Source: Candidatus Bathyarchaeia archaeon
GTDB taxonomy: Archaea > Thermoproteota > Bathyarchaeia > Bathyarchaeales > Bathycorpusculaceae
DNA length: 26,818 nucleotides
Direction: 5' to 3'
Assembly (NCBI GenBank): GCA_049512075.1
Contig: JBEKXL010000028.1
Span: 1 to 26,818, forward strand
Made by a program: the position numbers and the translations under genes. The notes below the pieces were generated by a model. That model was not told where the DNA came from. It searched no databases and saw only the letters and a list, made by a program, of their open reading frames with translations. Of the stretch, positions 123-26,026 are shown piece by piece. Within the stretch, counting starts at the first letter, position 1; the number at the start of each line of letters is the position of its first letter.

Positions 123-153
123 ATGGTAGCGCGCGCTATGCACTTTTTCGCCT

Positions 154-753
154 TTATTTAGTCAAAGCCTCGATTATCTCGGTTTTTTGTGGTAGGGTCA
201 TTAATCTTCCTTTCAGTTGACCATCTCTAAAGATTAGAATAGTGGGAATGCTAAGGATGTCATAGTTGTGCCAAATCTCTGATGTAGAAATATCCATCTC
301 GTAAAGCTCAGCGCGCCCAGCTAAATCCTCAGCAGTTTCAACATACACTGACTTCGCTACTTGACATGTGGGGCAATTTGGCGATGAAAAAAGAACGGCA
401 ACTGGTTTGGATGCATGCAGTACCTTTGAGGCAAAATCAGCGTCAGAAATAACTTTCACGTAGCTTGGTTTTTCTTTTCGAAATAGCCCCTTCAATTTTG
501 AAGCAACACCGGGATACTTCTTGTAAGCAATCTGATAACCAACTCTTTCAATGGCCGACTCTATCTCGGACAACCTGACCGAATCCGAATCATACACAAC
601 CTTTACCATTTTAGTCAGGTAATTTGCTCGAGCTTCTCTCACTCCGTTAAGCTTCAGGATTTCTCTCTCCAAAATTGGAACGCATGTTGAGCAATCCATT
701 TGAACGATGGGAATAAGCTTCATTGTGAGCGGTTTTTCGTTGCTAGTGCTCAT
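154..753 (-). CDS. Heavy-metal-associated (HMA/CopZ-like) domain fused to a thioredoxin domain
   Basis: N-terminal MDCSTC metal-binding motif with an HMA pattern (...IESAIERVGY). C-terminal thioredoxin fold with FSSPNCPTC and cis-Pro motif SIPTILIF. Lies 3 nt downstream of copA. Confidence 0.85.
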   Translation of the reverse strand: MSTSNEKPLTMKLIPIVQMDCSTCVPILEREILKLNGVREARANYLTKMVKVVYDSDSVRLSEIESAIERVGYQIAYKKYPGVASKLKGLFRKEKPSYVKVISDADFASKVLHASKPVAVLFSSPNCPTCQVAKSVYVETAEDLAGRAELYEMDISTSEIWHNYDILSIPTILIFRDGQLKGRLMTLPQKTEIIEALTK

Positions 754-756
754 TGT

Positions 757-2829: not shown

Positions 2830-2840
2830 GATTACCTCTC

Positions 2841-3206: not shown

Positions 3207-3235
3207 TCTAGAACCAAACTCTTAGAGTTCTAATC

Positions 3236-3610: not shown

Positions 3611-3629
3611 TGTGTCACCTCCTTTTTCA

Positions 3630-4487: not shown

Positions 4488-4500
4488 TTCGAAAACTCCT

Positions 4501-4962: not shown

Positions 4963-4964
4963 GA

Positions 4965-4984: not shown

Positions 4985-5098
4985 CTCTCTTAAAGGTTGC
5001 GCAACGCAAGCTGGAAACAAAACATTCCGGAAACATAAACAAAACAATAGCTTTTCATAGCGAGTCAATTGCATAAACGAGTCTTAATGGTGAAAGGC

Positions 5099-5638
5099 AT
5101 GAGTGAATATCCTCTTGGAAGTCGAGAAGACCGTAAGACACTGGCAGAGATGCCCATGGAGAAACTGTTTGATTATTTCTTTCTGCAAATTCGCAACATT
5201 TGGAGAGTTGATGGTCTGTATTTTCTCGGCATCGAAAAGAAGTTTGGGACTGAAGCAGCAACTGAACTTGACGCTGGGGCTTGGGAGAGCATGGCTGCAA
5301 TCGAGGCCAAGAGCCTGCAACGAATGTTCAAGGTTAGCGAAAACCCAGATATGTCCATGATTATTTGTCTTTTGCGCAAATCCAGTTGGGCACTGGATCA
5401 ACCTTTCAAGACCATCGAAATCGGAAAAAAGCGGGCTATCCTTGGCATTGATAGGTGCAGGACTCAGGAGGCTCGTCTGGGCAAAGGTTTATGCGAATTT
5501 CCCTGCAAGAAAGTACGGTTCGGATATTTGAAGAATTTCGCGAAAACTCTCAATCCAAAAGTAGAAGTAATCTGCTTGGTCTGTCCACCAGACAAACACC
5601 CTCCAGACTCGTGGTGCAAATGGGAATTCACAATGTGA
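5099..5638 (+). CDS. DUF6125-like Cys-rich protein (V4R/ATC-hydrolase-like fold)
   Basis: W.VDGLYFLGIE..FG.EAA, CRTQ.AR, FPCK and CPPD.HP..WC.WEF. ATG at 5099 preferred as start. Confidence 0.7.
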   Translation: MSEYPLGSREDRKTLAEMPMEKLFDYFFLQIRNIWRVDGLYFLGIEKKFGTEAATELDAGAWESMAAIEAKSLQRMFKVSENPDMSMIICLLRKSSWALDQPFKTIEIGKKRAILGIDRCRTQEARLGKGLCEFPCKKVRFGYLKNFAKTLNPKVEVICLVCPPDKHPPDSWCKWEFTM

Positions 5639-5699
5639 CGCGCGCGGGTAAGACATAAGTTCTGCAAAAACAACGTCAACCTATTCGCGGGGAAAGATC

Positions 5700-6353: not shown

Positions 6354-6354
6354 T

Positions 6355-7144: not shown

Positions 7145-7327
7145 TCTTTCACCAGAAACAATCTCTACACCGCCGACAAATTAAGAGTTGCGTAAGCTGG
7201 CGCGCATGGTTGTTGCCAAAATGGCTAAAAATGTTTTTATTCTTATTTTGAGGAGCAAGGATAGCGCGCGCACGTGTTCCGAAAACAATAAGACTTACAT
7301 TTCTATGCTGGATGATCGTGGAGAACA

Positions 7328-7777
7328 ATGTCTAAACCTGAGAAGAATGTGGGTATAGTGATCTGTGATCGTTACCATACTTGCGCCGGCGGCAAATGCT
7401 TAAGAGCATTGAAGAACAAGGAAGGAGCTTTCAGTTTGTACGCCGACCAGGAAGTGAAGCTCGTAGGATACACTACTTGTGGAGGATGTCCTGGGGGAAA
7501 CGTTGAAGACTGTATTGAAGAAATGAAGAAAAACGGCGCTGAAGTGGTTCACTTTGCCACAGGCATGCTCGTGGGTTATCCACCCTGCCCCTACATTGAC
7601 CAGTTGCGCGACTTTGTAAAGCAGAAATACGATATAGACGTGGTTATCGGAACACATCCAATTCCAGAGAAATATTACCTGACACATGAAGCCTTGGGAA
7701 CTTGGAAATCGCCTGAATGGAAAGAACGAATCAAGCATGTACTGACAGATGAGCAGACACGATCAAAATACAATTGA
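7328..7777 (+). CDS. CGGC domain protein
   Basis: ICDRY..CAGGKC, TCGGCPG, YPPCP and GTH motifs. Confidence 0.9.
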   Translation: MSKPEKNVGIVICDRYHTCAGGKCLRALKNKEGAFSLYADQEVKLVGYTTCGGCPGGNVEDCIEEMKKNGAEVVHFATGMLVGYPPCPYIDQLRDFVKQKYDIDVVIGTHPIPEKYYLTHEALGTWKSPEWKERIKHVLTDEQTRSKYN

Positions 7778-8036
7778 ACAAAAAACCTTTTTCATTCTTG
7801 ATATCTTGTAACAATCGATTTCACAGAACCCTATTTAGCCCTCATTAATACCGAAAAATAGGTCGACCGATCAATTACGGATAGAGTTGGTTTTTGTAAT
7901 AGCCGTGACTCGTGTACAATGCGACCGCCAGATTATGGCGCGCGCCGGCTTGTCCCTAAATTATGTGTTGACCATGTTGGTGAACCGTGGCCTTCTCGGG
8001 CAGACTTTTAAGGGAAGCTCAAGTTTGCTTAGGAAT

Positions 8037-8528
8037 GTGTCAGCGAGACGCGCAATAAGTATTCGTCCAATGCAAGATGCAGACAGACCCTTTGTCTACG
8101 GAGGACTCTGACACGAATTGGCAGGACATTCCTGACGATCAGAAGACTGAACTAGACCGAACAGTCTGTGACAAGCTTGTCTTTGATGATTTTGAGCGTT
8201 TTGTCAAAACTGAACGTTTCAAATTCAGAGTGTTCGTCGCGTCTCTGAAACCAACAATCAGGTCGGGTTCATCTCTGTTGGAGAACTGGCCAACCCTTGT
8301 GTAGGATTTCCCTACGGAGCAGTACTCGATTTTTGGGTTGCCCCCGAGCTTCGTAGACAAGGCATAAGAGGCAGATTATTGGATTACGCTTTGGAACACC
8401 TGCGATCAAAAGGGTATACTCATGCGGGCATCCTCGCCTCGTCTTCTAACAGGCAGGCTGTCAGCCTGTATGAGAAAAGTGGATTTTACGTGGATCGTGT
8501 AAATCTGATGAAACGACTGAGGCCCTAG
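8037..8528 (+). pseudogene. GNAT acetyltransferase disrupted by two frameshifts
   Basis: Three pieces: IRPMQDADRPFV.. (to ~8108), DTNWQD...FRVFVA (shifted frame, to ~8240) and VSETNNQVGFI...FWVAPELRRQGIRGRLL...N..AVSLYEKSGF...* (original frame, stop 8526-8528). Confidence 0.8.
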
Positions 8529-8615
8529 AGGCGCCAAGTCCAAAGCGCGCGCACCTAGCCATTCTGGCTTTGTACCGCGGGCAAAACCACCTAGTCCCTG
8601 ACTAATACATTGAAA

Positions 8616-8722
8616 ATTACATCTGACATTACAAAAAAAAAGGGCTGAGTCCACTCTGAACAGTAGTTCAGCCTGTTTTTCTCCATGGTTTGTAACAATA
8701 CACATTACATCTGACATTACAA
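8616..8722. repeat. Two exact 19-bp direct repeats ATTACATCTGACATTACAA
   Basis: Copies at 8616-8634 and 8704-8722 (88-bp period), each followed by an A-run and GGG. Confidence 0.85.
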
Positions 8723-8796
8723 GTGAAAAAGGGGAGCGACTTTGAAGGCTATGTATGGCTGGCTTGAGATCTTAGTCGAGAAAATTCTTAGAGTTG

Positions 8797-8816
8797 CAGT
8801 AGCGCGCGCGCTACTG
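8797..8816. repeat. Perfect 20-bp palindrome CAGTAGCGCGCGCGCTACTG (longest member of the GC-palindrome family)
   Basis: Self-complementary over all 20 nt; 50 nt downstream of the cooC-like stop at 8866. Confidence 0.9.
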
Positions 8817-8865
8817 ATTACTAACCAGATGGTTCAGGAAGCAGACGCGATAAAGCCCATACCAA

Positions 8866-9636
8866 TTAATGCTTGGAATAACCGGCCGCCAGCAATATTT
8901 CCTTGACTGAAGCAAACGCTGGAGAGTCTGAGGGCAGGTCAAGTAAGGATCTTCCTTCAAGAACGTACTCTTCGACTTTTTCGTCGCGAGTTATCTTGCC
9001 CAGATACTTGAATTTCAAAGCGTTTTCAACATGGCCTCTCAGGTTTTCTGGAAGCCTGTAGCCGCCGACAACGTAGAAGTTCTCGAAGGCTATTTTGACC
9101 TCTTTGGCCACGCGATAGGCCCGTTCAACGTGGTCGATGGATTTCTTGGAAGGGTCGATGACATCGAAAACGTCATTGACTTTTGTCGCGATTCTTCGGT
9201 TCAGGTGCTCTAGGCCGGCTGGCGAATCGATGAGTACGTACTTGTAGTTCTTTGTCAGGGTTTCGAGTGCTCCTTTCAGAGCGGCGTTTGGCAGGCAGTA
9301 GCATCCTTCAACCCATTTTGTTCCGAGGGCGATGAAGTCAAAACTGTCGCCTTCGTACATGCCTCGAGCCCATATCTTGTTTTCAACCCGCTCAGTGGGG
9401 GCAACGCCAACGGTGGTTCCGCCCTCTTCCAGAAAAGTCTCCACGAGCAAGTCTGAGATTGACTTCTTGCCCACTTCTTTCAGGTCTACCCCGACCATTT
9501 CACCCAGATTCTGGTCAGGGTCAGCGTCCACCAGGAGAAGAGGCGAGTCTCCAGCCTCGCTGAAGTGCTTGGCCATCATGGCCACAAAACTCGTCTTTCC
9601 CGTTCCTCCACGGCCGATAGTGACAAGCGTCTTCAA
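8866..9636 (-). CDS. cooC: CooC/AcsF-family Ni-insertion ATPase (MinD/ParA class), copy 2
   Basis: GRGGTGKT, DADPDQNL, EGCYC metal motif and DSPAGLEHLNR. Confidence 0.85.
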   Translation of the reverse strand: MKTLVTIGRGGTGKTSFVAMMAKHFSEAGDSPLLLVDADPDQNLGEMVGVDLKEVGKKSISDLLVETFLEEGGTTVGVAPTERVENKIWARGMYEGDSFDFIALGTKWVEGCYCLPNAALKGALETLTKNYKYVLIDSPAGLEHLNRRIATKVNDVFDVIDPSKKSIDHVERAYRVAKEVKIAFENFYVVGGYRLPENLRGHVENALKFKYLGKITRDEKVEEYVLEGRSLLDLPSDSPAFASVKEILLAAGYSKH

Positions 9637-11340: not shown

Positions 11341-11536
11341 ACCAATTCACGCTCGTTTAGCGCATTCATGGTTCATGCTCAAGTTCTTATCTGTTTTGGT
11401 AGCGCGTGCTAAACGGAGCGCGCGCGATCTTGCTTCTACAGCCAGAAAAAGGAGACCCGAGTGAAGGAAGTATTGAAAGGCTATTAAGGACTAGTGCAAT
11501 ATCGAGATTCATTAAGAAGTCGGGCTGTGAGGCAAA

Positions 11537-12038: not shown

Positions 12039-12677
12039 CTAAGCTGTCTTTGATGGCGGACTTGACGCAGTGGGCTGTGACGTCGCTGGCGTGGCTGGTT
12101 CTCTAATGGAGAAGAATGCCACAGCGACCAGTATCCAAGCACTGAAAACTATGATTAGACCTACGAGAATTATTGTGAGAGCTGCACCTATGAGCAGAAG
12201 TAACCCTGCAGTGTCGAACATTTTTTCTCCAGATTTGTCTGCGAGCGAGTCCAAGGCTCTCCTGCAGTATACGGCTTCAAGCACGTAGAAGATGAACACG
12301 ACGAGCAAAGTCAGAATTATGGCTCCAAGGATTCCCGAGAAGCTTCCTACCTCAAAGAACCAGCCGAAAAGCAGCGTTATCACAACGGATGCGACAGCAA
12401 CAACGCCTATTATACCGAATATGAAGCCGTAGAGCGCGTTTCTGTATATGCCATCGTCTCTGTAGTGTTCTGCCAAGTTCTTCATGCCGATGAGCACGAG
12501 TATTATGCCTACAAGACCCAGAACACCGCTGATGGCGCTCGGAAATGTTAACTCTGAGGCTCCAAGGCATATCGAATAGGTCAACGCGATCTCTCCAAAT
12601 GAACCGACTGCCAGCAAGATGGCGCCTATGCCGCCCAAGGTTTTTCCTGTTTTCAGTCTTCCTGGTTCTGAAATCAT
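12039..12677 (-). CDS. DUF996 family membrane protein
   Basis: KTLGGIGAIL, G.K.LA..Y.D..IY.NAL, LA.KSGE.MF.TAG.L.LIGA.L and AFFSI, with a Pro/Ser/Thr-rich tail. Confidence 0.8.
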   Translation of the reverse strand: MISEPGRLKTGKTLGGIGAILLAVGSFGEIALTYSICLGASELTFPSAISGVLGLVGIILVLIGMKNLAEHYRDDGIYRNALYGFIFGIIGVVAVASVVITLLFGWFFEVGSFSGILGAIILTLLVVFIFYVLEAVYCRRALDSLADKSGEKMFDTAGLLLLIGAALTIILVGLIIVFSAWILVAVAFFSIREPATPATSQPTASSPPSKTA

Positions 12678-12925
12678 TCTTGTGCCTCTCTAACCCGTTT
12701 GATTTATCACACGATAAAAGTCTTTCAGAATTTTGAACCAAATGCACGTGATGTCTTCATAAGAGTCTCTTTTCAGAGGCATTTTGATAACCCCGGTCCA
12801 TTTGCATATCTGATGCGAAAGCCGAGAGACAGTTTTGTCAATACCAAAGACAAAAAACAATGATTGGTTGGCGCTGCGCAACACAGATAAAAGGCCTGTT
12901 CGAACTATTTGTCTTAGTGAACTGA

Positions 12926-13864
12926 ATGGATCTTCGACGTTTGGAGTTTACTCTTACTACGAAGTGTAACTCGCAGTGCGTGTACTGTCAGGCGAGCGCG
13001 GGGCCGTGGCGGAATGAAGTGATGGACGTTAGGGAAGCTTACAATTATCTCACTGAGGCTGTGAAGGCCGCGGATCTCGAGTCCTCTTTAGTGTTCGGCG
13101 GAGAACCCATGCTTTATCCAGCTCGCGCGACTGCCATATTCAAGAAAGCTCAGCAGATGAACATTCCGATAATCGAGATGCTAACAAACGGGGTTTGGGG
13201 CAAAGACAAGAAAAGAGCCGAGAGATTGGCGAAGAGACTGAAGAGTGCAGGACTTAACACTATGGGCATAAGTGTCGACGCCTTTCACCTCGAATATATC
13301 CCGCTGGAATATCCGCGAAACGCCGCGCTGGCTTCGTATAAGGCAGGCATTGAAAAAGTCACGTGGAACGTTGCCGTCATCGAATCATTAAACGCCGCAA
13401 ACCATTATGACAAGATGACCGCACACATACTGAAAGAGCTGGAACCAGTAGGAATCGAAGCACACGTACACAAGGTCGCGGCAGCCGGACGCGCATTAGA
13501 GGCGATACCGCAGTATTTCCGGAAGACCCAGTTGGAAGGCCCATGCAAAGGCGAAACACCGATGGAGAACACACTCACAAATCCACAATACCTGACCATT
13601 GAACCGTCAGGCTCGGTGGATGTCTGCTGGCACCTGTCCATCGGAAACGCAAAGGAAACACCGCTAGGCCGCATCATAAACGATTATGATTGGCAAAGAA
13701 AACCTCTGATTAAGACTCTAGTAGAAGAAGGACCGATGGGGCTGTTGAAGCTTCAGAAAACACTCATTGGCCCTTTCAACAAAAGTGAATACATCAACAA
13801 GTGTCATCTGTGCGTGGAAGTCAGGAAGCGTTTGAACCCTCGCGAACAACTTGAGACTAGCTAA
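12926..13864 (+). CDS. Radical SAM protein with C-terminal Cys-containing (SPASM/twitch-like) region
   Basis: CNSQCVYC, GGEP, TNG.W, ISVD.FH, G.V.VC and C-terminal CHLC. Confidence 0.9.
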   Translation: MDLRRLEFTLTTKCNSQCVYCQASAGPWRNEVMDVREAYNYLTEAVKAADLESSLVFGGEPMLYPARATAIFKKAQQMNIPIIEMLTNGVWGKDKKRAERLAKRLKSAGLNTMGISVDAFHLEYIPLEYPRNAALASYKAGIEKVTWNVAVIESLNAANHYDKMTAHILKELEPVGIEAHVHKVAAAGRALEAIPQYFRKTQLEGPCKGETPMENTLTNPQYLTIEPSGSVDVCWHLSIGNAKETPLGRIINDYDWQRKPLIKTLVEEGPMGLLKLQKTLIGPFNKSEYINKCHLCVEVRKRLNPREQLETS

Positions 13865-13936
13865 TATGACCATCCCTTGACTGGTACTGTAAGTCTTTGA
13901 CCCACCGAACTTTCGAGCGCGCGCGCTGGTGAGGCT

Positions 13937-14062
13937 GTGTATGAAAGGCGGAAGTGCAAACGATGTGGGACAAAACTGAGGCGTACGCTTGTAACGAATT
14001 CAGACGGGACACTTTCCTGTGTCGGTTGGGAGCCTGACACTGAAGAGACTGACGAAGAGTAG
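13937..14062 (+). CDS. Possible small CxxC protein or gene remnant (41 aa)
   Basis: GTG after GGTGAGG; reads MYERRKCKRCGTKLRRTLVTNSDGTLSCVGWEPDTEETDEE*. Confidence 0.35.
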   Translation: MYERRKCKRCGTKLRRTLVTNSDGTLSCVGWEPDTEETDEE

Positions 14063-14308
14063 CCTACACATCTGGCCCTGACACTGAATAACAACAATAG
14101 CGCGCGCGGTTAAAAGCGACAAGATATCAAAAAACAAGCTTGAAGAAATACTATCATCCACAGTAAGCGGAACATGAAACTAGTACGCGACACGCGCAGG
14201 CCTACCGCAATCCGCCTCCGCAATGCTGGCAATCAGGGTCTACAAGAGAAACAGTTCAGGGCAGGTTCGATAGTCGATATTAGCACGCGCTGATCTCTTG
14301 CTTTGGGT

Positions 14309-17194
14309 TCAAACTCGGGGTCTGTTGGCGTTATCTTCCTTTGCCAGTTGTATCGTTTCTGGAAGGTTCACCCAAACATCCTTGGTTTCCTCGGTTCCAA
14401 GTTCAATCGGAACGTCTATCCTAAAGATGGTTCCTTTTCCAACGGTGCTTTCTACAGAGATAGTGCCCCTGTGTGCCTCCACTATTCTTTTGCATATGGG
14501 CAAACCGAACCCCATGCCTTTTGCCTTTGTGGTGAAGAGTGGCGTCCACAGTTTCCCCAGCGCTTCCTTGCTCATTCCAGTTCCAGTATCTGTGAAACTG
14601 AAGGACACGCGCTTCTCTATCTCTTCACTTCTAATTGCTAATACTCCGCCTTTGGGCATAGCGTCGAAAGCGTTTTTGATTATGTTGATGAAGACTCTTT
14701 TCATTTTTGGCACGTCAGCCCTCATTCTTGGCGTGTCTTCAGTTTCGTCTCGCACTTGGATGTTTTGAGGAATCTCCAAGCTGGAATACACCTCTTTCAA
14801 CATTGATTTTGGTGTAGTTTCAGCCAATTCCAGTCCTATCTCCCTTGAGTAATCCAGCAAATCGCTGATGATTTTGTTTGAATACTCTATAGCTTTCTCG
14901 ATGATCTCCAGCATTTCCTTGCCTTTTTCATCAATCTTGGAACCATTTTTTGCTTTCAAATAATATGCGGCTCCTGCAATGCCGGTCAGCGGGTTGCGCA
15001 GATCATGACCAACCATTCCGGCCAACTCACCAATCGCAGCTAGTCTCTCAGATTTCAACAGTTTTCTCTGAGCATCAACTAAATCCCGTGTTCTTTCTTC
15101 CACTTTTGCCTCAAGCTGCCCAGCATGTTTTCGGATTTGAGCATTAGCATCATTCAACTGTTTGATTAACCGAGCATTTTCGATTGCCACTGCAGCCTGA
15201 TGCAGGAACAACTCCAACGGCGCCAAGGATTCCCTGGTCGGTCGCCTGCCGTCAATAGGATCGTCCATACTAACTACAGCGACAATGCGTCCATCTGCCA
15301 ATTGAAGTGGAGCGTAAAGCAAGTCATCAAGGTTCCAATCAACCATCTCTTCGGGCTTCAGGTGGCTTAACACAACTCCTTTGCTGAACTTCTCTTTGAC
15401 TAAAGGATCGCTATAGGGCAGATAGTAGAACTCTCCGACTTTGAAACGTTCAAACTCGGGCCCAAAACGTTCTCGCCAAACTTTTCCAGATTGACGGTTG
15501 GTCCAAAGGAACTCCTGTTCTTTCTGTGCCAACCCGGCGGTCACAAGATCATCGGGTTCTGAAATGTCTAGCTGCTCGTTTCTCACCGAGAGTACGACTC
15601 TTCGCCAACCAAGACCATGAGTCGCATCTACAATCGCTTGAAGACGCTGACGCAATTCTGTGGAGTGAATCATCGCTGCAGAACTCCGCATCAATGATCT
15701 TTGTTGGTCAACCGCGCGCGCAAGCTTCTCCTCCAACCGCTTTCTCTCGGTAATGTCAATGAAGCTTTCAACCAGCTGCATCTCACCACCTATCTCTGCA
15801 GCAACAACAGTCTTGATCACTGGGATGGCTTGCCCGGTGGCAGTCAGCAACTTTCCCTCTGAATTATCAACCGTCTGCCGAAGGTCTGTGATTGGACAAT
15901 GTCCTTGTTCCGCTAGACAGATGAATTTGTGACAAATCGCCCCGACGATATGGTCTCTTGTTCCACCAAGCATTCCCACCGCAGTCTTGTTCGCTTCACG
16001 GATCGTGTGAGTTACTGGATCAATCACAATGATTCCCGTTTGCGCGGAGTTCAACAAAGTCTTCAGACTATCTTCACTTTTCTTCAGATCAGTAGTTCTC
16101 TCTTCCACCTTGGCTTCCAGCTGCGCCGAATATTCCTCGAGTTTCCTTTCCATCTCTTTCTTTTCTGTGATATCTCGAAGGAGAGTTTCACATCCGACAA
16201 TCTTTCCACCCTGTCTCACGGGGTTGCTCGCATATTCCACAGTGAGTTTTCCTTTCGAAGTGATAATTTCTGTTTCGCCCTCAGCGTTTTTCCCACGAAT
16301 AACGCTAATATGCTCCTTGAACACTCTAAGTCGGTTTCTTCTGGGAATAAACTTGAGCATGCTTTTTCCGACAATATCTTTTTTTTCTAGACCAAACTCT
16401 TCGACGAATCTATTCACATAGGTGACGGTTCCCTTTCTATTCATTCTGAGCATGAGAAATCTGGCGTCTTCACACAGACTCTTGTATCTTTCTTCAGATG
16501 CTTCAAGCTCCTCGAAGGCCCTCTTCTGTGTTTGCTTCAGATCTTCTCGGGTTTTCTCCAATTCACCCTGCAACATGAAAAAAGAGGCCATGTCACCGGC
16601 AATCCGGTCCTTGGTTACAGTGAACATCAGAGCGGTGAACACCATCCCAAAGAGAGTGAGCAAAACAGTAATCTCCTCTACCAAACCAATGTCCAGGGCG
16701 ATCCATGAAAAAATGAAACAAGAAAAAGCCAAGAAGAACATTAGATCAGAATTGTCTCGTCTTTTTATGAACAGATATATTGAAGCCGGAAGAGATAGCA
16801 TTGCGAATGCACTAAACAAGGGTATGCGAAAAACCTCGGCCGTGCTAGGAAAAACCAGAAAAACGATGGATGCGCCTAAGATGAAAAGAAAGCATTTGAA
16901 AGGCCGGTCGAAGCTTTTGAGTTTCAATAAACTGGACATGATCGCGATCGAAGCTGCGGCAGTTACTGGGACAAAAGACCACTTGTAATTGTTATCCCAT
17001 ATGGTAGGAACGCCAAATCTCTGAAGCATCAGATTGGAATAGCCAACAGACGCAAACGCGAAGCACAGCATGAACATGATCTTGCGTTTGTCTCCATCCT
17101 TGCGCGACAAATATAGGAGAAACACAGAAAGAACTACCGTGACAGCAAAGGGGACCGTCCAGAACAAGGCTCTCAACAACTCGTCCAAGTACAT
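14309..17194 (-). CDS. Membrane-anchored PAS-PAS-GAF sensor histidine kinase
   Basis: About 7 N-terminal TM helices, two PAS/PAC modules ending in DITE, a GAF region ending AAVAIENARL, H-box HDLRNPL, N-box NAFDAM, DTGTGM, PLFTTK and GMGFGL. Confidence 0.93.
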   Translation of the reverse strand: MYLDELLRALFWTVPFAVTVVLSVFLLYLSRKDGDKRKIMFMLCFAFASVGYSNLMLQRFGVPTIWDNNYKWSFVPVTAAASIAIMSSLLKLKSFDRPFKCFLFILGASIVFLVFPSTAEVFRIPLFSAFAMLSLPASIYLFIKRRDNSDLMFFLAFSCFIFSWIALDIGLVEEITVLLTLFGMVFTALMFTVTKDRIAGDMASFFMLQGELEKTREDLKQTQKRAFEELEASEERYKSLCEDARFLMLRMNRKGTVTYVNRFVEEFGLEKKDIVGKSMLKFIPRRNRLRVFKEHISVIRGKNAEGETEIITSKGKLTVEYASNPVRQGGKIVGCETLLRDITEKKEMERKLEEYSAQLEAKVEERTTDLKKSEDSLKTLLNSAQTGIIVIDPVTHTIREANKTAVGMLGGTRDHIVGAICHKFICLAEQGHCPITDLRQTVDNSEGKLLTATGQAIPVIKTVVAAEIGGEMQLVESFIDITERKRLEEKLARAVDQQRSLMRSSAAMIHSTELRQRLQAIVDATHGLGWRRVVLSVRNEQLDISEPDDLVTAGLAQKEQEFLWTNRQSGKVWRERFGPEFERFKVGEFYYLPYSDPLVKEKFSKGVVLSHLKPEEMVDWNLDDLLYAPLQLADGRIVAVVSMDDPIDGRRPTRESLAPLELFLHQAAVAIENARLIKQLNDANAQIRKHAGQLEAKVEERTRDLVDAQRKLLKSERLAAIGELAGMVGHDLRNPLTGIAGAAYYLKAKNGSKIDEKGKEMLEIIEKAIEYSNKIISDLLDYSREIGLELAETTPKSMLKEVYSSLEIPQNIQVRDETEDTPRMRADVPKMKRVFINIIKNAFDAMPKGGVLAIRSEEIEKRVSFSFTDTGTGMSKEALGKLWTPLFTTKAKGMGFGLPICKRIVEAHRGTISVESTVGKGTIFRIDVPIELGTEETKDVWVNLPETIQLAKEDNANRPRV

Positions 17195-17528
17195 TTTTCG
17201 CGAATACTCCGTTAGGCAAGTCCAACTTCAAGCGTTACAAAGAACGAAAGAAATTCTATTTAAGAGCTGTGAATCCGAAATACATAGCTTCACAGGTTAG
17301 CATTTGATTCAAACGCACGCTCGCGCGAATCCGTCATGACATGAGGTTCCATGCCGCGGGCTATCTTGAACTGGATGTCCAAGGAAGAGGCGCAAGCCGC
17401 AAGCCGTGCCGAGCTCAGGGTTGGCGGCGCGCGCTTCCTCATGCTGATTGGTGGCATAATATTGCACGCAGTTCTGGCTCGGAAGATAGCTTGTTGAAAA
17501 CCACACCAAGAACGATGTACAACGCCTG

Positions 17529-17612
17529 CTATTTTCGTCTCCTAGAAATCATCACATTTTCATGGTTGCAGACACATTCAAATCCAGCCTCAATAAGTCT
17601 CTTAGCTTCCAT
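17529..17612 (-). pseudogene. C-terminal stub resembling the tail of archaeal tyrosine integrases
   Basis: Reads MEAKRLIEAGFECVCNHENVMISRRRK*. This resembles the EA..LIE.GFEYVC....V.IFRKRK tail I recall from Bathyarchaeia integrases; no catalytic domain is present upstream. Confidence 0.55.
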
Positions 17613-17899
17613 CAATACTACTATCGCGCGCGAATATGTCCAGTATATGGAAAATCGATGGAGATATAGCAGGGAGATACAGGGCTCAGCTTATTATGTT
17701 TAAAAACCGAATTTAGGAACGCGCATGCGCGCTACGGCTGACTGAGAAGAAGCGGCTACATGATTAGCGCGTGCTAAGCTATAGATTCCTACAGTCGAAA
17801 ACAACACTAGGGTAGACGAAGACTTGGACTTTGGATATTAATCGAGACTTCACAAGATTTAACTTTCTTTCCATCATAGAACCTTCAAGGGAACTTTAC

Positions 17900-18421
17900 A
17901 TGTCAATTCGAATGCGCGATGTCATGGTGAGGAAAGTGATAACGACGAAGAGAGACTCGACAGTGGAAGAAGCCGTTGAGCTGATGAATGAACATGAGAT
18001 AGGGTGCCTGATCGTTGCTGATAACAATGAGCCTATAGGAATACTTACGGAGCGAGATCTTCTGAAGAGAATTCTGGCCAAGTCCGAAGATCTCAAGAGA
18101 ATAAAAGTTGAGGAAGTGATGTCAACGCCCTTGATATCTGTGGGACCTAATGTCCAAATTGGAGATGCATCAAGACTAATGTTCCAGAAGAACATCAAGA
18201 AGATGCCGATCATAAAAGAAGGCGAGCTACTTGGCTTAGTAACGCTGACAGATATTCTTCGAATTCAACCCCAACTCATCAAAATGTACAAAATATTCAG
18301 CGCAGGGCTCGCTCCGCGACGAATCAAAAAAGTGTTTGACTACTATCTGCTCGTTGACGCCAAAATCGACATTCAGACAACATCGGTAAATCTCAGCTCC
18401 AAGAAAGTTGAAACAATGTAG
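17900..18421 (+). CDS. CBS-domain pair protein
   Basis: RDVM..KVIT...TVEEA..LM....IG.LIV...GILTERDL and a second repeat ending GLVTLTDI. ATG at 17900 preferred as start. Confidence 0.9.
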   Translation: MSIRMRDVMVRKVITTKRDSTVEEAVELMNEHEIGCLIVADNNEPIGILTERDLLKRILAKSEDLKRIKVEEVMSTPLISVGPNVQIGDASRLMFQKNIKKMPIIKEGELLGLVTLTDILRIQPQLIKMYKIFSAGLAPRRIKKVFDYYLLVDAKIDIQTTSVNLSSKKVETM

Positions 18422-18985
18422 TCGGAAACACATTTGAAAGGCTTCTATCAAGCTCTGCTTTTGCTTTAGATGCGCGCGCGTCGAACAATCAAGGGTTTAA
18501 ATTTCTTCAATTGAAAGAACATAAAGCCTCGCCACGTTTGCAGGGCCTTGGTTTTCATCTTTTTCGAGCACAAACCCATCTTTTTCAATCGTGTCAACTG
18601 AAAAAAGAACCAAATGTTTCAAGAGGCTAAGTATTATTGGATGAGTGGGGTGGATGGCGGATCTCCTTCTCCTATCCCTTCTACCGTCCTCCTCATGAAA
18701 CTACGCGCGCTACTCCCATTAAACATAGGAGTAAACTGAGGGCATATCCAGACTTTTGCCTACGGAGAACCTTCATTCTGAATTCTCCGCTTCACATCTG
18801 CCAATTCTGTTTTAATAGATTTATGAAGTCTGCGTACAAACAATCAGTCCACATTTTACAATCTTCACACGAGTGCTAGCGCGTGCGCGCTGTCTTTTTA
18901 CCCAATTCGTACGTTAGTGCAAAGATGGCTTGACGCGGAAGCGGAAGCATTCGCTAAATGTCTCTTTTGGAATGCGGGTCCCTAT

Positions 18986-19941: not shown

Positions 19942-19971
19942 CTCAAGGCCTGCGCATTAATCCACTCTGCC

Positions 19972-21499: not shown

Positions 21500-21865
21500 C
21501 AGAATCCCAAGATCCTCAACTAGAATTGAAAACCGAGCTTTTCTGAGGAACGATCAGACTGCAAGTTCCATGCAACATGCAGCCCATGGAGCGCGCGCTA
21601 GTTACTGCGTTTGCTCCAGTGATTTCCGTTCGACTGTAACAGCATTGATGACATATTTTGATGCAACACTGGGGTTTGCATCGAAAATAGGTTATTCCCT
21701 TACCTTTCTCTCAATACTCCTGTTTTTAACTGCCATCATAGCAGAACTAGCGTCTTCAAGGAGAAACAAGTATATCCAAGATTCCAGCTCTGCAATAACT
21801 GACAGTAAATGCACTCCCACACATGCACAGACGCAATGAAGAGTTCAGTCTTTAGTAGGACTTGA

Positions 21866-22102: not shown

Positions 22103-22664
22103 GGCTTATCAACCACTACTATCATGATGCAAGAAATATTAAAGATTCTCAGTATATGCCCAAGCACAGACACAATAAATAACACAATACTAAGTATTCT
22201 TGTGCACATAATCCTCAGTACTCCGATAGAAAATCTCTCTTTGGGTCTCTGGAAGTAGTGTCCATAAAATAGAGAAAAAAGATGATATGTAGCCATTTGG
22301 TTTATGAAAAAAGCATTCAGCAGGATGGTGCCCAATATAGAATTCTGCTTATTCCAACAGCCCCTATCTAAGCTTTCAATGCCCTAGAAGTACTTGGTGT
22401 CTGAAGACGGCAAGATCTTGTGCATATTGTGCGAAAATAGGATATCCAGAACTATCTTCCGGCGAACTGCTCAAAGCTGCTAGAACTCTAACTGACAAAC
22501 CTATATTTTTTGATGGAAAACTCGGTTTGAGAATCGTAAATAATCCTTAGAATACATCAAAGGTGTCCTAGGTTCCAATAGCACTGTGAAAACCATTGAC
22601 CCAATTGACCAAAACAGTATTGACCCAAATCTCTTAAATGTTAGTTGCTTCAATGAAAATAGGA

Positions 22665-22742: not shown

Positions 22743-22743
22743 T

Positions 22744-22896: not shown

Positions 22897-22936
22897 GACG
22901 TCCGCGTTTTTTCTAGATTAGAATTTTCGCGCGACT

Positions 22937-23389: not shown

Positions 23390-23637
23390 ACATCTTACCT
23401 CAATATGTAGTTATGTTGTACTGTTTTATTGTTACACGCCTATACAATATGTCTCATATCACATGATTTCATATATAGCTTATTTCGAAAATCGATATAT
23501 CCTAGCGCTAGGGTAGCCGGTGAAGCTTATGAATTTGAATTGTAATTGCACGCGCGCCCACCAAAAAAAGCTTGTTCATATTGGATTCTAGGTTATTTCC
23601 TGAAGAAGCTGTTGAGAACTGAGTGACTAGATGTTTA

Positions 23638-23655
23638 AGTAACACATGAGTTACT
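23638..23655. promoter_or_regulatory. Near-perfect palindrome AGTAACACATGAGTTACT upstream of the polB promoter
   Basis: 18 bp with one mismatched pair, about 25 nt upstream of the TATA-like TTATTTAA (23681-23688). Confidence 0.45.
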
Positions 23656-23739
23656 GAAACGCGCCCTGTATGTCCATATGTTATTTAATGCCCTTGAGAT
23701 TAGTATGATCCAAAAAGGAATTGTCTGGTAAGTGAGTCT

Positions 23740-25638
23740 TTGAACCTTCTCTGCCTTCTGGACGCAAAGGTAACAGAGACAAACGCAATCAAGCTTGAAT
23801 TCGTGGACAGCAACGGCGAATCACAAGAAACCGTTGATGTTGCATATAAGCCCTATTTTCTCGTTGAATGGCCGTTGAAAGATGAAGACAAGGAAATAGT
23901 CAAGTATTTCAGTGGAGAAATTCAACCTGTAGAAAAGATCGACTTGTTCTCTAACACAAAGAGAATTTACGGAAAAGTCTATTGGCCCAACGCCAGAATT
24001 GCTGCGAAAGCCGCGGAGAAGCTTCCTCAGCATTGGGAAAGCGAAGTCGAATTCGGGAAATCCTACGTTTATGATCAAGGACTCGTGTTTGGCGCTCTCC
24101 ATTCCGCGCAGGATTTGAAGGCATCGCTAGAGGTGCCACTTGAGGTCACATATAAATTTGAGAGCCTGTTCAAAGAGATTCAGGCCAGCGACCCATTGAA
24201 ATATGAGCAAATCAGGTACTGGTTCAACCTTCTTAATCAACCGCTACCCAAGCTGGCCCCCGATTTTTTCGGCAAACAAGCAGACGTAGGCGAAGTTAAC
24301 AGAGCCTGCATGTTGGCAAGAATTGCAAACATTCCCATAACTGAGGCTTTCAACAGCAGACACGTGAGTAGCTGGATTAAAGCCATCATGTACACGTATT
24401 TGCGAAAGAACAACATTCTCATCCCCTCTTCTGAAGAGCTAAGGAGGGGAAGACAGACTAGTGCTGTGCCCGGAGCATTGACGATCGCGCCGAAAGCGGG
24501 AACTTACTTTAACACGGTCGTCTGCGATTTCGAAAGTCTGTATGCAAGCTGCATTGACAGTTTCAACCTTTCCCATGAAACAGTCGACTGTGTACACGAT
24601 GAATGCAAAACCAACAGAATCCCCGACGTTGAATACAGTTTCTGCACAAAACGCAGAGGCTTCTACGCAGTCCTTGTCGGCGCTTTGAAAGAGTTGCGCA
24701 TCAAGGTCTTCAAGCCAGCTTCAAGAGACAGCTCCCTGTCCGAAGAAGAGAGAGAAATCGCCCGCGCTGCATCAAAACTGCTAAAACTAATCCTTGTGTC
24801 GAGCTACGGTGTTACCGTCAGAATTCATGGAGTAGCGTGCCGTCCTTTGGCTGAAGCCATCACCGGCTGCGGCCGCCACGTCTTGAGAGAAAGTTGGAGA
24901 ATGGCAGAAGAGAACGGCTTGCATCCGCTTTATGGCGATACCGATTCATTGTTTCTGGATAATGCTTCAAACGCTCAAGTCGAATGGCTGATCAACACGG
25001 TTAAAAACAGGTTTCGATTGGACTTGGCCGTGGATAAGCGTTACAACGTGTGCGTTTTGCCTAAAGCAAAGAAAGCGTACTTCGGAATCCTGCCTGACGG
25101 AACGCCTGACATCAAAGGAGTAACCGCAATCAAGTCCAATTCGCCCCGGTACATCAGAGACGTTTTCGAACGATGTGTGAAAGAGCTTTCCACAGTGAAA
25201 AACCTGCCAGAATATTCTGAGGGAAAGGACCGGATAAAAAAAGTCGTAAGAAATGCCGTAGCAGATTTGAAAAACGGAAACGTCAGGCTTGAAGACTTAA
25301 TCTATTCCGTACGGCTTTATTTTGACCCTAACGAGAAAATAGGCGACATGAAAACAGCACATCAACCCTACCAATGCGCGTCGCAACTCATGAACGCGGG
25401 CAGGAAACTGAAAAAAGGGGACACCGTCTCCTTCGTAAAAGTGAAGCCCTTCAGGTATGAAAAGAGAACTTTCACCGTCAAACCGGCCGAGTTTGTCAAG
25501 AACCTTTCGGAAACAAACGTGAATGATTACATTCGGAATTTGTTGACAGCTTTGAACCAAACCTTTGAATCCATGGACGTAAAACTCAAAGAGGAAAAGG
25601 AAGCTGAAATTTCCAAATGGTTCAATGGATTTCCCTGA
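23740..25638 (+). CDS. polB: Family B DNA polymerase, PolB1-like, lacking the 3'-5' exonuclease domain
   Basis: Motif A DFESLYAS, NLSHETV, motif B KLILVSSYG, motif C YGDTDSLF, KKAYFG and IKG..AIKS. No Exo I DxE / Exo II / Exo III motifs seen. 632 aa. Confidence 0.9.
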   Translation: MNLLCLLDAKVTETNAIKLEFVDSNGESQETVDVAYKPYFLVEWPLKDEDKEIVKYFSGEIQPVEKIDLFSNTKRIYGKVYWPNARIAAKAAEKLPQHWESEVEFGKSYVYDQGLVFGALHSAQDLKASLEVPLEVTYKFESLFKEIQASDPLKYEQIRYWFNLLNQPLPKLAPDFFGKQADVGEVNRACMLARIANIPITEAFNSRHVSSWIKAIMYTYLRKNNILIPSSEELRRGRQTSAVPGALTIAPKAGTYFNTVVCDFESLYASCIDSFNLSHETVDCVHDECKTNRIPDVEYSFCTKRRGFYAVLVGALKELRIKVFKPASRDSSLSEEEREIARAASKLLKLILVSSYGVTVRIHGVACRPLAEAITGCGRHVLRESWRMAEENGLHPLYGDTDSLFLDNASNAQVEWLINTVKNRFRLDLAVDKRYNVCVLPKAKKAYFGILPDGTPDIKGVTAIKSNSPRYIRDVFERCVKELSTVKNLPEYSEGKDRIKKVVRNAVADLKNGNVRLEDLIYSVRLYFDPNEKIGDMKTAHQPYQCASQLMNAGRKLKKGDTVSFVKVKPFRYEKRTFTVKPAEFVKNLSETNVNDYIRNLLTALNQTFESMDVKLKEEKEAEISKWFNGFP

Positions 25639-26026
25639 GCCACAACACCCCGAACAGTACTGCCCATGAACCTTTCTGTCTAGTCCGATTCCAAAGATGT
25701 TTATATAATCTTCTGCTTGTTCCACGTGAAGGTTTTTTTTCACAAGATTCTTCTCAGCAGCATAAGTCTTGCGTTTGCTTAGAGGGCAGACTCCTACAGA
25801 AGAGACGAATTATTCGCTGACCTTAGGCTCCTTCTGCCGGCTCTCTCTCTTCTTTTACTACGCCCGGGGGGGTGGAGGAATGTTGGGTGGTGGTTCGCGC
25901 GCGCGAGCATGAGTTGCTCACGAAGCAAAGGTGATTAATTTTCTGTAAGTTTATAATTTGAAAACGCAGAAGGTGTGGTGTAGCCCATGACACAACAACT
26001 AAAGTTTGGAGGTTCTGAAGTTTAGC

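Follow-up and report, generated by a model that had tools for sequence, protein, structure and literature searches.

Alternating G/C palindromes in a Bathyarchaeia genome as possible junction scars of an IS5-like transposon family

What are the short alternating G/C palindromes that recur between the genes of this Bathyarchaeia archaeon, and where did they come from? The window (the whole 26,818-nt stretch that was analyzed, with a GC content of 46.7%) contains 15 maximal alternating G/C runs of at least 8 nt and 13 runs of 6 to 7 nt. The word GCGCGCGC matches 15 times, compared to a mean of 0.34 and a maximum of 3 in 100 dinucleotide-preserving shuffles, which bears out an earlier estimate of less than one such run per window by chance. 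By crude, ORF-based gene calls, 14 of the 15 runs lie outside genes, as the earlier note had counted, and their neighbors are genes of unrelated function (Pfam), as it had also said. The claim that the runs mark most gene boundaries was overstated, however: the 14 intergenic runs fill 10 of about 25 inter-gene intervals in the window, and genome-wide about 15 to 20% of intergenic regions contain one. The perfect TAGCGCGCGCTA reported at 127 and the perfect 20-bp palindrome reported at 8797, which reads CAGTA(GC)5TACTG, are both present. Rfam and tRNA scans of the window returned nothing except a tRNA-Val. The features are as follows, with the strand given where one is assigned.

127..138: TAGCGCGCGCTA, solo palindrome (maximal run from 129), 17 nt past the stop of a thioredoxin/HMA gene (154-753, minus strand)
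5639..5646: CGCGCGCG, immediately 3' of the stop of 5069-5638
7264..7271: solo GCGCGCGC in a divergent intergenic region
7938..7975, plus strand: GCGCGCGC then CGG-CTTGTCCCTAAAT..., end of the IS5-like/MITE family, with a GC tip of 8 nt rather than 6 nt
7938..8801: 864-bp segment bounded by GC runs, absent in G003 and the X7 strain, where one run is left
8545..8552: GCGCGCGC, truncation point of one copy of a ~280-bp repeat
8553..8801, plus strand: truncated copy of the ~280-bp repeat with two ATTACATCTGACATTACAA units (BLAST)
8802..8811: (GC)5, center of the 20-bp palindrome at 8797-8816
11418..11426: solo GCGCGCGCG, maximal alternating G/C run
12788..18451: 5.66-kb segment with radical SAM, 961-aa histidine kinase, and CBS genes, missing at this locus in G002
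13917..13926: (GC)5, 52 nt past the stop of 12926-13864
14100..14108: solo TA-GCGCGCGCG, maximal alternating G/C run
15713..15721: CGCGCGCGC within the 961-aa histidine-kinase ORF, the sole run inside a called gene
17427..17434: solo GCGCGCGC, maximal alternating G/C run
17625..17632: solo CGCGCGCG, maximal alternating G/C run
18472..18480: GCGCGCGCG, reported as 20 nt inside the right border of the 5.66-kb segment
18704..18710: TA-CGCGCGC-TA, left edge of a 281-bp segment found only in G000
21591..21598: GA-GCGCGCGC-TA, 17 nt from a 226-bp indel
25896..25905: (CG)5, maximal alternating G/C run

Abundance and distribution of the runs

The source genome (G000) holds 581 alternating G/C runs of at least 8 nt (0.21 per kb, versus 0.56 per kb in the window), with lengths that peak at 8, 9, and 10 nt (284, 186, and 105 runs, respectively) and only 6 that are longer. 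The genome-wide k-mer count that had been proposed as a check places GCGCGCGC as the most over-represented 8-mer (1292 on both strands versus 56-89 expected); 553 of 646 locations (86%) are intergenic and 85 are in coding sequence. Runs occur on all large contigs at 0.5 to 1.9 per kb of non-coding DNA, and a few contigs have none (e.g., C24, 31 kb, 51% GC). They are found in divergent (85/450), tandem (183/1222), and convergent (83/425) intergenic regions, at densities of 0.68, 0.92, and 0.86 per kb, respectively, with a mild excess just 3' of stop codons (85 of 251 in the first fifth of tandem intergenic regions) and no preferred distance between paired runs. The flanks of solo runs are simple, with an A at position -1 in 69% and a T at +1 in 67%, and nothing is conserved beyond 10 to 12 nt. 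In G000, A(GC)nT occurs 91 times for n=3 (44 expected), 115 times for n=4 (2.9 expected), and 50 times for n=5 (0.2 expected); A(GC)6T and A(GC)7T do not occur there.

Among 41 genomes compared, six are rich in runs (G000-G004 and G021, with 29 to 115 copies of AGCGCGCGCT), the other 35 have 0 to 11 copies, and close relatives in the same family have 0 to 1. The runs are abundant in just two genera, the source genus and one other; G021 also has about seven loci with runs of 12 to 18 nt. The runs are real rather than an assembly artefact, which had been named as a possible refutation, and they are far too frequent for chance. Independent Logan contigs of run X5 cover 13917 and 21591 with no differences, and the separately assembled genomes G001-G004 hold orthologous runs. 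The earlier view of a genome-wide, strongly intergenic, lineage-restricted element that is neither a pathway regulator nor a simple terminator stands.

Structural breakpoints and transposon tips

The earlier note missed that the runs lie at joints produced by insertions, deletions, and replacements, and that they match a transposon family's tips. Between G000 and G002 (~93% identity), a run is present at some border in 69 of 183 structural events, and 62 of 366 G000 borders (17%) have a run within 15 nt, compared to 3.2% of random intergenic positions. A run is present in the short allele and absent from the long one in 16 of 85 indels, and for 6 of them a border lies within a long-allele ORF of 150 aa or more, which marks the allele with the run as the derived deletion. 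At such deletion joints the run is extra DNA between exact borders (e.g., GCGCGCGC, GCGCGCGCG, and TAGCGCGCGC), and GCGC microhomology at the borders of the intact allele, seen by eye in about 5 of the 16, is not clearly above chance. Several sites retain the run together with one flank, whereas the other flank varies between genomes.

The window illustrates these patterns. Homology to G004 (100% identity, 1-127) and to G001 (3-126) stops exactly at the 127..138 run, and in G004 positions 128-2927 are exchanged for about 1 kb. The G001 synteny blocks begin at 5639 and at 7248, near the run at 7264; the second G004 block stops at 11409, close to the run at 11418, and the third begins at 25905. 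The 5.66-kb segment has no run at either border in G000 and is replaced in G002 by a 23-bp joint that includes GCGCGCGC. It contains five window runs (13917, 14100, 15713, 17427, and 17625), of which 15713 falls in a stretch (15050-16070) without alignment to the G002 paralogous locus. In the X7 strain, 12106-13942 is swapped for 539 other letters, rejoining 17 nt after the 13917 run. At the 281-bp segment whose left edge bears the 18704 run, G002 and the X7 strain carry 12 to 15 other letters instead, and beside the run at 21591, G002 is missing 21616-21841.

One GC-flanked site in the window exists in three states: an element end (G000 and X6), an 864-bp insert (G000), and a single run (G003 and X7). 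Positions 7940-7956 of the source contig (G000:C28) fit the element-end pattern, and a contig of run X6 agrees with the window across this end as far as 7971, beyond which its letters resemble the interior of other element copies. In G003, the blocks q6375-7946 and q8804-11986 abut with one run common to both, the latter block beginning at 8804, where G003 reads GCGCGCAC and the window has (GC)5 at 8802. The X7 contig links 7937 to 8802, and the 8 letters at the join fit either side. The insert includes a copy of the ~280-bp repeat, for which BLAST gives 41 further matches in G000 and dozens more in G001 and G002, and which lacks inverted repeats of the IS5-like/MITE type. Five of six inspected copies have runs of 8 to 9 nt at both constant ends, and in the sixth (on C1) one end has a run and the other a decayed one. 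Copies of the family are truncated at differing points with a run exactly at each; full copies extend upstream with ...GAAGTAAGCCTGCCAG, and at 8545..8552 the run takes the place of that part.

Once in place, the runs decay. In collinear alignments at ~7% genome divergence, 22 of 66 orthologous runs are identical, 25 have 1 or 2 substitutions, 16 have substitutions and indels, and 3 are pure insertions (10 to 12 nt, without duplication). Changes in the non-identical runs comprise substitutions, 2-nt slippage, and indels, and the runs decay no slower than their flanks. Within the window, the run at 5639 is identical in G002 and reads CGCGTGCG in G004 and CGCACGCA in G001; that at 7264 is identical in G004 and decayed to ACGCGTGC in G003 and G001; and that at 11418 is identical in G002, reads GAACGCGCT in G003, and is 2 letters shorter in the X7 strain. 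G002 carries GCACTCGC with small indels at 18472, GCAAACTCGCCCGCGC at 21591, and CAAGCGCGCG at 25896.

The matching elements are an insertion sequence of ~1.1 kb and MITEs of ~300 bp, both of whose ends read A-GCGCGC followed by NNN-CTTGTYCC. We assign the family to IS5 by these terminal inverted repeats together with a DDE_Tnp_1-type transposase (PF01609, 6e-17) that has a DUF772 N-terminal domain (PF05598, 5.6e-06). The inverted ends were seen in G000, G001, G003, and G021 (among the matches listed), and the G004 ends fit the tip pattern. Of 91 loose end-motif matches (G000 and part of G002), 39 are preceded by a tip of exactly GCGCGC, 3 by one of 7 nt, and 6 by one of 8 nt; the constant 6-nt tip is retained across diverged element subfamilies. 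In complete elements a T follows the right tip in 8 of 8 and an A precedes the left tip in 7 of 8. Because empty sites lack them, this A and T belong to the element. No consistent target-site duplication was found around the 8 complete elements or the 3 pure solo insertions; TA stands on both sides of 3 of the 8, and the empty sites have no TA.

The elements bring their GC tips to sites at which the sister genome has no run. The flank maps uniquely at 18 of 65 element ends; the element is present in both genomes at 3 of these, the sister has no GC run at 11, and it has a run at the same spot at 4. With 11 of 15 informative ends facing no run, the element needs no run as a target. A MITE on G002:C8, for instance, occupies a site that reads ...ACCTTTTCGATA... 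in G000, and G001 has no run at the site of the C31 MITE. Tip-pattern counts in G000-G004 and G021 are 54, 9, 15, 4, 17, and 38, compared to 0 to 4 in the other 35 genomes, and transposase homologues of at least 70% identity are confined, among the 41 genomes, to G000, G001, G003, G004, and G021. Since the genomes are related, this co-distribution amounts to only about two or three independent lineages.

Palindromes as putative transposon scars

We consider that the solo palindromes are best read as neutral junction scars derived from the tips of this one transposon family, and not as functional sites, and we give this reading a probability of roughly 0.5. Loss of the element body, with its two A(GC)3 tips fused at an overlap of one or two GC units, would leave a solo A(GC)4T or A(GC)5T; possible routes are excision with subsequent microhomology end joining and slippage of one self-complementary tip against the other. 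Two (GC)3 tips that overlap by at least one unit give a maximum of n=5. Where the element and adjoining DNA were lost together, one tip would be joined to the DNA beyond, placing a run at a deletion or replacement joint. Because tips and scars all share one self-complementary sequence, a scar may also favor further exchanges where it lies. Selection probably clears scars from genes, which would account for the intergenic bias. The solo runs then decay by point substitutions and 2-nt slippage.

Several observations stand against this scar model. At most deletion joints that carry a run, the intact sister allele has no element, and the model must then assume an unseen earlier insertion before each such deletion, or one-sided events. 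The n=4 form dominates, although n=3 is expected if complete tip overlap is favored, and the runs at the constant ends of the ~280-bp repeat are left unexplained. Four genomes (G023, G018, G013, and G019) have 5 to 11 copies of AGCGCGCGCT and no tip-pattern match. The 12-to-18-nt runs of G021 and the missing target-site duplications also count against it, as does the small number of independent lineages. The sole simple allele pair found, a MITE with GCGCGC on each side (G002:C1:16611-17036) versus a solo (GC)5 at G000:C14:8005, speaks for the model but is not polarized by outgroups, since G001, G003, and G004 gave no alignment across this site or the MITE sites. Solo runs are roughly tenfold more numerous than element ends, and they lie near present ends with a weak 1.4-fold excess (12.3% versus 8.8% within 2 kb).

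Scars of this kind have eukaryotic parallels. As in the footprints of Tc1/mariner, Stowaway, and hAT elements, a few terminal letters of both ends (here A-GCGCGC...GCGCGC-T, reduced to A(GC)4-5T) would be left joined at the former site as short, functionless traces of near-fixed length that accumulate and decay. The differences are that the host is a prokaryote, the element is IS5-like with a DDE transposase, no flanking target duplication is retained, the ~600 scars constitute the genome's most over-represented 8-mer, many lie at deletion or replacement joints, and excision here is putative. Nearly precise excision of Tn10 and Tn5 proceeds by slippage between short repeats in the inverted ends; it resembles our case in that the body is lost by pairing of the element's own inverted ends and leaves a small end-derived remnant, whereas here the remnant is just 10 to 12 nt, comes from palindromic tips, and is present in hundreds of copies. 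We know of no IS4/IS5-type transposase that leaves end nucleotides behind. The eukaryotic PIF/Harbinger elements are relatives of IS5. PIF/Harbinger elements excise precisely, which also weighs against the scar model, whereas a footprint of a few bases marks the excision of other class 2 elements (PMC2836001).

If the scar reading is correct, the commonest 8-letter word of these genomes is transposon debris rather than signal, and annotators should be wary of calling such motifs regulatory. Since prokaryotic insertion sequences are not generally considered to leave traces of this kind, hundreds of recognizable end-derived scars would be unusual. In the literature, consulted mainly as abstracts, we found no description of GCGCGCGC palindromes or of insertion sequence excision footprints in archaea or Bathyarchaeia. 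Because they decay measurably, scars could date as well as locate insertions, deletions, and segment swaps, and they would help to explain the fluid intergenic regions of this genus. The handling of palindromic ends by an IS5-type enzyme or by host repair would then be a tractable question.

Alternative origins

The main rival, though an unlikely one, is element-independent repair filler, in which host end joining adds, or joins through, a short alternating G/C tract at every new joint, whether a deletion, a captured fragment, or even a transposon insertion, and the transposon tips are another product or a bystander. Ku-dependent end-joining junctions can carry filler DNA or non-templated additions, which likewise place extra letters at deletion joints, and G000 encodes a Ku homologue. 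This explanation accommodates the runs that are pure extra DNA at deletion joints whose intact allele has neither run nor element, the 3 pure insertions without duplication, and the runs at both joints in 5 of 6 copies of the ~280-bp repeat, which has no inverted repeats. The added letters here are, however, always the same alternating G/C at fixed length, and Ku is not co-distributed with them: it was found in 3 of the 6 run-rich genomes (G000, G002, and G004) and 3 of the 35 run-poor ones (G010, G020, and G040), and was not found in G001 (77% complete), G003 (93%), or G021 (98%). Repair filler also does not account for why the A...T flanks match those of the element tips, why lengths stop at (GC)5, or why diverged subfamilies share a constant 6-nt tip, and no candidate polymerase was identified.

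A more novel but unlikely reading is a dedicated and undescribed joining reaction that writes the same (GC)4-5 palindrome at essentially every new joint, after which the identical scars would act as portable sites of exchange. Either the IS5-like transposase, as a cut-and-rejoin engine operating across the genome, or a host end-joining activity making self-complementary GC tails could be responsible. Gene cassettes, the ~280-bp repeat, and multi-kb blocks would then be repeatedly swapped at scars, and the intergenic DNA would be both a readable ledger of rearrangement and a cassette-exchange system.

We think it quite unlikely that the runs came first, by whatever cause, as fragile or recombinogenic hot spots that gathered breakpoints and elements (variants include a Z-DNA-prone sequence, an att-like recombinase site, and a preferred transposon target). 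Sites where the run is kept and the DNA on one side differs are consistent with hot spots, as are the alternation of a two-run-flanked segment with a single run (7938-8801 versus G003 and X7) and the 4 of 15 informative element ends that face a run in the sister genome. The remaining 11 face none, however, and new runs arise at deletion joints where neither border of the intact allele has one (the 16 of 85 indels). Neither the origin nor the fixed length of the runs is explained.

It is improbable that the runs are functional cis elements under selection, whether as a chromatin or chromosome-organizing protein site, a methylation mark, or a transcript-end signal. The strong intergenic bias and the mild excess after stop codons in tandem regions point in this direction. 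Alternating G/C is Z-DNA-prone, and the tracts of at least 8 nt supply the sequence prerequisite for a left-handed conformation. Yet a run is present in only a minority of intergenic regions, at similar density for all gene orientations and with no fixed position or orientation relative to gene starts or ends; two-thirds of orthologous runs are mutated or resized; and close same-family relatives have almost none. The protein site and the positional role suggested earlier thus find no support. Of the suggested methylation or recombination mark, the second part comes closest to our reading, and a C5-methylation mark is not supported, as the 99.8%-complete G000 has no match to PF00145. The same result separates the runs from cyanobacterial HIP1 (GCGATCGC), likewise a GC-rich, hugely over-represented, lineage-limited 8-bp palindrome. 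HIP1 also occurs frequently within genes and has an associated cognate methyltransferase, whereas the runs described here are mostly intergenic, lie at breakpoints, and match transposon tips.

Finally, REP/REPIN-like elements spread by a Y1 (RAYT-type) transposase, in the spirit of the REP-like hairpin of the earlier note, are a very remote prospect: the runs are abundant intergenic palindromes linked to a transposase family, as REP/BIME and REPIN-RAYT sequences are, and G000 has 5 PF01797 matches, but REPs are imperfect 20-40-nt hairpins spread by a single-copy Y1 transposase, whereas these are perfect 8-10-nt palindromes without a loop or conserved head sequence, associated with a DDE transposase. 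The Y1 genes in G000 are part of a multi-copy IS200/IS605-type element whose hairpin end does not adjoin GC runs (a 7-nt run lies near just 1 of 11 copies), and PF01797 was found in G000, G001, and G002 and not in the run-rich G003, G004, and G021, a distribution that contradicts this origin. The last 109 nt of the window are the hairpin end of an element of this IS200/IS605 type.

Distribution and decay of alternating G/C runs

A recount of the window, contig C28 (26,818 bp; one of 86 contigs in a genome of 2.73 Mb), recovered at the same positions the 15 maximal alternating G/C runs of at least 8 nt described in the earlier note, plus 13 of 6 to 7 nt. The 8-mer GCGCGCGC has 15 matches in the window versus 0.34 expected, and the largest count among 100 shuffles was 3. 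Genes were called with a crude finder that scored the longest ORFs on codon usage and picked them greedily (2,506 genes, 77% coding). These independent calls again placed 14 of the 15 runs outside genes. The claim that the runs mark most gene boundaries was correct as to their intergenic location but not as to frequency, as they are spread over only 10 of ~25 inter-gene intervals. The adjoining genes are functionally unrelated, as had been claimed: they include genes for a P-type ATPase, a thioredoxin/HMA protein, Mrp/NUBPL and ParA-type ATPases, OsmC, a radical SAM protein, a histidine kinase, a CBS protein, an aminotransferase, a family-B polymerase, and a methyltransferase. In Pfam, the only part of a family-B DNA polymerase matched by the 632-aa ORF at window positions 23740-25638 is the polymerase domain (PF00136, 2.9e-31); the exonuclease domain gave no match, and the ORF may encode a PolB paralog that has been truncated or inactivated.

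The possibility that the runs are an assembly artifact is excluded by Logan contigs and by orthologous runs in related genomes. Every run spanned by the Logan contigs of sequencing run X1 (possibly the source sample) is identical to the window, those of the independent sequencing run X5 cover the runs at 13917 and 21591 with zero differences, and a related strain in sequencing run X7 has most of the window's runs.

The genome that includes the window (G000) contains 581 runs of at least 8 nt. Counts fall geometrically from 4 to 7 nt (8,834, 2,105, 669, and 195), rise to 284, 186, and 105 at 8, 9, and 10 nt, and are 3, 2, and 1 at 11 to 13 nt; no other alternating dinucleotide of G000 has a comparable histogram. 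Genome-wide k-mer counts against a Markov background, split by coding and intergenic DNA, revealed both the enrichment and the intergenic bias that had been proposed. Under a third-order model GCGCGCGC is the top-ranked 8-mer, with 1,292 observations on both strands versus 56 to 89 expected (Markov orders 0 to 3), and its 646 occurrences are 553 intergenic, 85 coding, and 8 across a boundary, whereas other GC-rich palindromes distribute according to the 77% coding fraction. An A directly precedes the 8-mer in 69% of cases and a T directly follows in 67%. One position further out, the runs show a weaker T (before) and A (after), and no letters are conserved beyond these around the G000 runs. 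All large contigs carry runs, with no preferred spacing in G000. Zero runs occur on contig C24 (31 kb) and on several smaller contigs (3 to 9 kb), which have a higher GC content (~50 to 51%) and may be foreign, mis-binned, or recently acquired DNA.

Runs occur in 85 of 450 divergent, 183 of 1,222 tandem, and 83 of 425 convergent intergenic regions, at similar densities (0.68, 0.92, and 0.86 per kb, respectively), which simply rise with region length. Tandem regions show a mild excess in the fifth closest to the upstream stop codon (85 of 251). Conservation was assessed against G002, a genome of the same genus (1.54 of ~2.33 Mb used), for the 66 of 581 G000 runs that fall within unique collinear alignments and no closer than 40 nt to where an alignment ends. 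In G002, 22 are identical, 25 have 1 to 2 substitutions (C>T 8, G>A 8, C>A 7, C>G 6, and others), 16 have substitutions plus indels (often ±2 nt), and 3 are missing as clean 10- to 12-nt gaps. Decayed forms of the window's runs in relatives include CGCGTGCG, CGCACGCA, and GCGCGCAC. The runs do not behave as conserved functional sites. The sequence AGCGCGCGCT has 115 copies in G000, 29 to 98 in each of the four other genus members (G001 to G004), 63 in G021 (another genus), and 0 to 11 in the remaining 35 relatives searched.

G/C runs at structural breakpoints

Synteny blocks shared with G001 to G004 end at, or within ~20 nt of, the window runs at 129, 5639, 7264, 7938, 8802, 11418, 18472, 18704, 21591, and 25896, and in a comparison of contig C33 with five genomes, alignment ends again coincide with runs. 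The following window segments differ among genomes.

Window segments that differ among genomes
7938-8801: 864-bp segment with a run on each edge; a single run instead in G003 and the X7 strain
12788-18451: absent at this locus in G002; GCGCGCGC within the 23-bp joint of G002, no run at either G000 border
22356-22664: replaced by 86 bp in G002; CGCGCGCGC at the G002 joint

The 5.66-kb block at 12788-18451 encodes a radical SAM protein, a 961-aa PAS histidine kinase, and a CBS protein, and sequences matching parts of this block lie elsewhere in G001, G002, and G003. In the X7 strain, 539 other letters stand in place of window positions 12106-13942.

For the whole genome, megablast matches of at least 200 bp between G000 and G002 were retained after repeat matches were dropped (545 reduced to 315), and chaining of neighboring matches at gaps of -50 to 30,000 bp yielded 183 junction events. 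Runs of 8 nt or longer lie within 15 nt of 62 of 366 borders in G000 and 35 of 366 in G002, compared to 3.2% of 20,000 random intergenic positions, and 69 of the 183 events have a run at one or more borders.

Runs at 85 indels between G000 and G002
Run at the short-allele joint, none at the long-allele borders: 16
Run at only one border of the long allele: 8
Run in both alleles: 2
No run: 59

At 6 of the 16 indels with a run at the short-allele joint only, one border falls well within a long-allele ORF of 150 aa or more. The long allele is therefore the ancestral, intact state, and the run is DNA added at the deletion joint. Joint fillers include GCGCGCGC, GCGCGCGCG, TAGCGCGCGC, and AGCGCGCGCACA. 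Runs appear de novo at deletion joints, and they decay.

A transposon family with GC-rich tips

From the junction listings emerged elements ending in GCGCGC-NNN-CTTGTYCC(G/T)AAAT. Among 91 loose matches to this end motif (G000 and part of G002), the genuine ends have an upstream GCGCGC tip of exactly 6 nt in 39 cases, of 7 nt in 3, and of 8 nt in 6; most of the other 43 (0 to 5 nt of tip) do not contain the remainder of the end motif. The eight complete elements comprise MITEs of 303 to 306 bp, one element of 482 bp, one of 1,109 bp, and two of ~8 kb, with an A before the left tip in seven and a T after the right tip in all eight. The 1,109-bp element carries a DDE_Tnp_1/DUF772 transposase gene, an IS5-type architecture. 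One end lies in the window.

7938-7975: match to the GC-tipped end pattern

The surrounding intergenic region (7777-8866) holds a different insert of this family from genome to genome. In G004 a 305-bp MITE (contig C15, 17602-17906) directly follows the block ending at window position 7827, G000 has the element end at 7938, where the strain in sequencing run X6 seemingly has an intact element, and G003 and X7 have one run only.

The family and the runs are co-distributed. The exact tip pattern has 54, 9, 15, 4, and 17 copies in G000 to G004, respectively, 38 in G021, and 0 to 4 in the other 35 genomes. Transposase homologs of at least 70% identity occur, among the 41 genomes, only in G000, G001, G003, G004, and G021, and the G002 transposase represents a subfamily (41 to 45% identity). 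The 349-aa ORF on contig C39 of G000 is an example of a full-length transposase of the family. More distant relatives (30 to 36% identity) lie in G005 (locus L165, 630-1881) and G029 (locus L162, 1338-2327), with element ends that start with CGCGCAGGC... in G005 and follow ...CGTGC(T/C) in G029. This hints that GC-rich tips predate the burst of solo runs, i.e., those without an attached element.

Empty sites were sought by requiring that the 130-nt outer flank of an element end map uniquely to the other genome and reach the junction, which was usable for 18 of 65 ends. The element is present in both genomes in 3 cases, the other genome has no run in 11, and a run occupies the same spot in 4. 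For example, the G000 counterpart of a MITE on contig C8 of G002 is an uninterrupted ...ACCTTTTCGATA... sequence. The empty alleles of the clean cases also lack the A beside GCGCGC, so A-GCGCGC is part of the element. Therefore, the elements import their GC tips, and runs are not required as targets. 

Origin of the solo palindromes

We give roughly even odds (probability about 0.5) to the explanation that the solo palindromes are by-products of the GC-tipped transposon family. Loss of an element body would join its two self-complementary tips, either by excision and microhomology joining or by slippage across the paired tips, and where an element was lost together with adjacent DNA, a single tip would be joined to the sequence beyond. 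The resulting palindromes would decay neutrally and be purged from genes. We infer the act of excision, its chemistry, and the two-step origin of the runs at deletion joints.

The counts of A(GC)nT in G000 for n = 2 to 7 are 469, 91, 115, 50, 0, and 0, versus 658, 44, 2.9, 0.2, ~0, and ~0 expected. If two A(GC)3 tips overlapped by 1, 2, or 3 GC units when joined, the product would have n = 5, 4, or 3, and n = 6 would be impossible; this predicted series matches the sharp 10-nt G/C ceiling and the A...T flanks. At one locus the two alleles agree directly with this scheme, as GCGCGC-MITE-GCGCGC in G002 (contig C1) corresponds to (GC)5 in G000 (contig C14). Relatives have 3 to 21 copies of A(GC)5T. 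Runs of at least 12 nt occur at 0 to 5 loci per genome in the genus and at ~7 loci in G021, some of 16 to 18 nt, and therefore the ceiling is strong but not absolute.

Several observations count against an origin from transposon tips. At most deletion joints the intact allele shows no element, no target duplication was found, the pairing of an element with a solo run is limited to one simple case that could not be polarized, and solo runs cluster weakly near element ends. PIF/Harbinger elements are eukaryotic relatives of IS5. Their precise excision, as described in PMC2836001, also weighs against this origin. Literature searches, which covered mainly abstracts, turned up no account of such palindromes or of footprints left by insertion sequences in archaea.

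A further family bordered by runs is represented once in the window.

8553-8801: copy of a repeat of ~280 bp (full copies in G000 include contig C13, 8732-9020; C26, 22422-22710; and C8, 6408-6696)

This repeat, which lacks terminal inverted repeats, contains two ATTACATCTGACATTACAA units alongside A-rich/G-rich stretches. G000 has 41 further matches to it, and dozens occur in G001 and G002. Independently of the junction events, copies are truncated at differing internal points, with a run exactly at each truncation, and in 5 of 6 inspected copies runs of 8 to 9 nt bound the repeat at constant ends, with unrelated outer flanks. The transposon-tip model leaves these borders unexplained. The repeat may be a MITE from a different family, a gene for a small RNA, or a mobile promoter cassette.

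Element-independent end joining, with the runs as filler, is the alternative that fares best, yet we regard it as unlikely. It suits the deletion-joint and pure-insertion cases but leaves the flanks, the length ceiling, and the co-distribution unexplained, and Ku was found in only 3 of 6 run-rich genomes and in 3 of 35 run-poor genomes. The distribution of Ku is patchy (G000, G002, G004, G010, G020, and G040 only, among the 41 relatives); the G000 homolog, at contig C16, 6054-6590 (PF02735, 7.6e-41), is a Ku homolog in an archaeon. It is less probable still that the runs are pre-existing hot spots or targets: the 11 clean empty sites and the de novo joints both contradict this. The functional cis element proposed by the earlier note is very improbable, given poor conservation (22 of 66 identical) and the lack of positional logic across gene orientations. 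We attach almost no weight to a REP/RAYT-like origin, as the Y1 transposase genes are part of a separate IS200/IS605-type element that is not co-distributed with the runs.

The end of the contig (window 26710-26818) carries an 11-copy repeat with the hairpin CCCCGGAGCAAGCTCCGGGG, which we assign to an IS200/IS605-type element end because Y1 transposase genes adjoin other copies (e.g., in G000, contig C3, 207195-207554, and C21, 29420-29779). This repeat has no association with the G/C runs, and it is probably the cause of the contig break at the window end.
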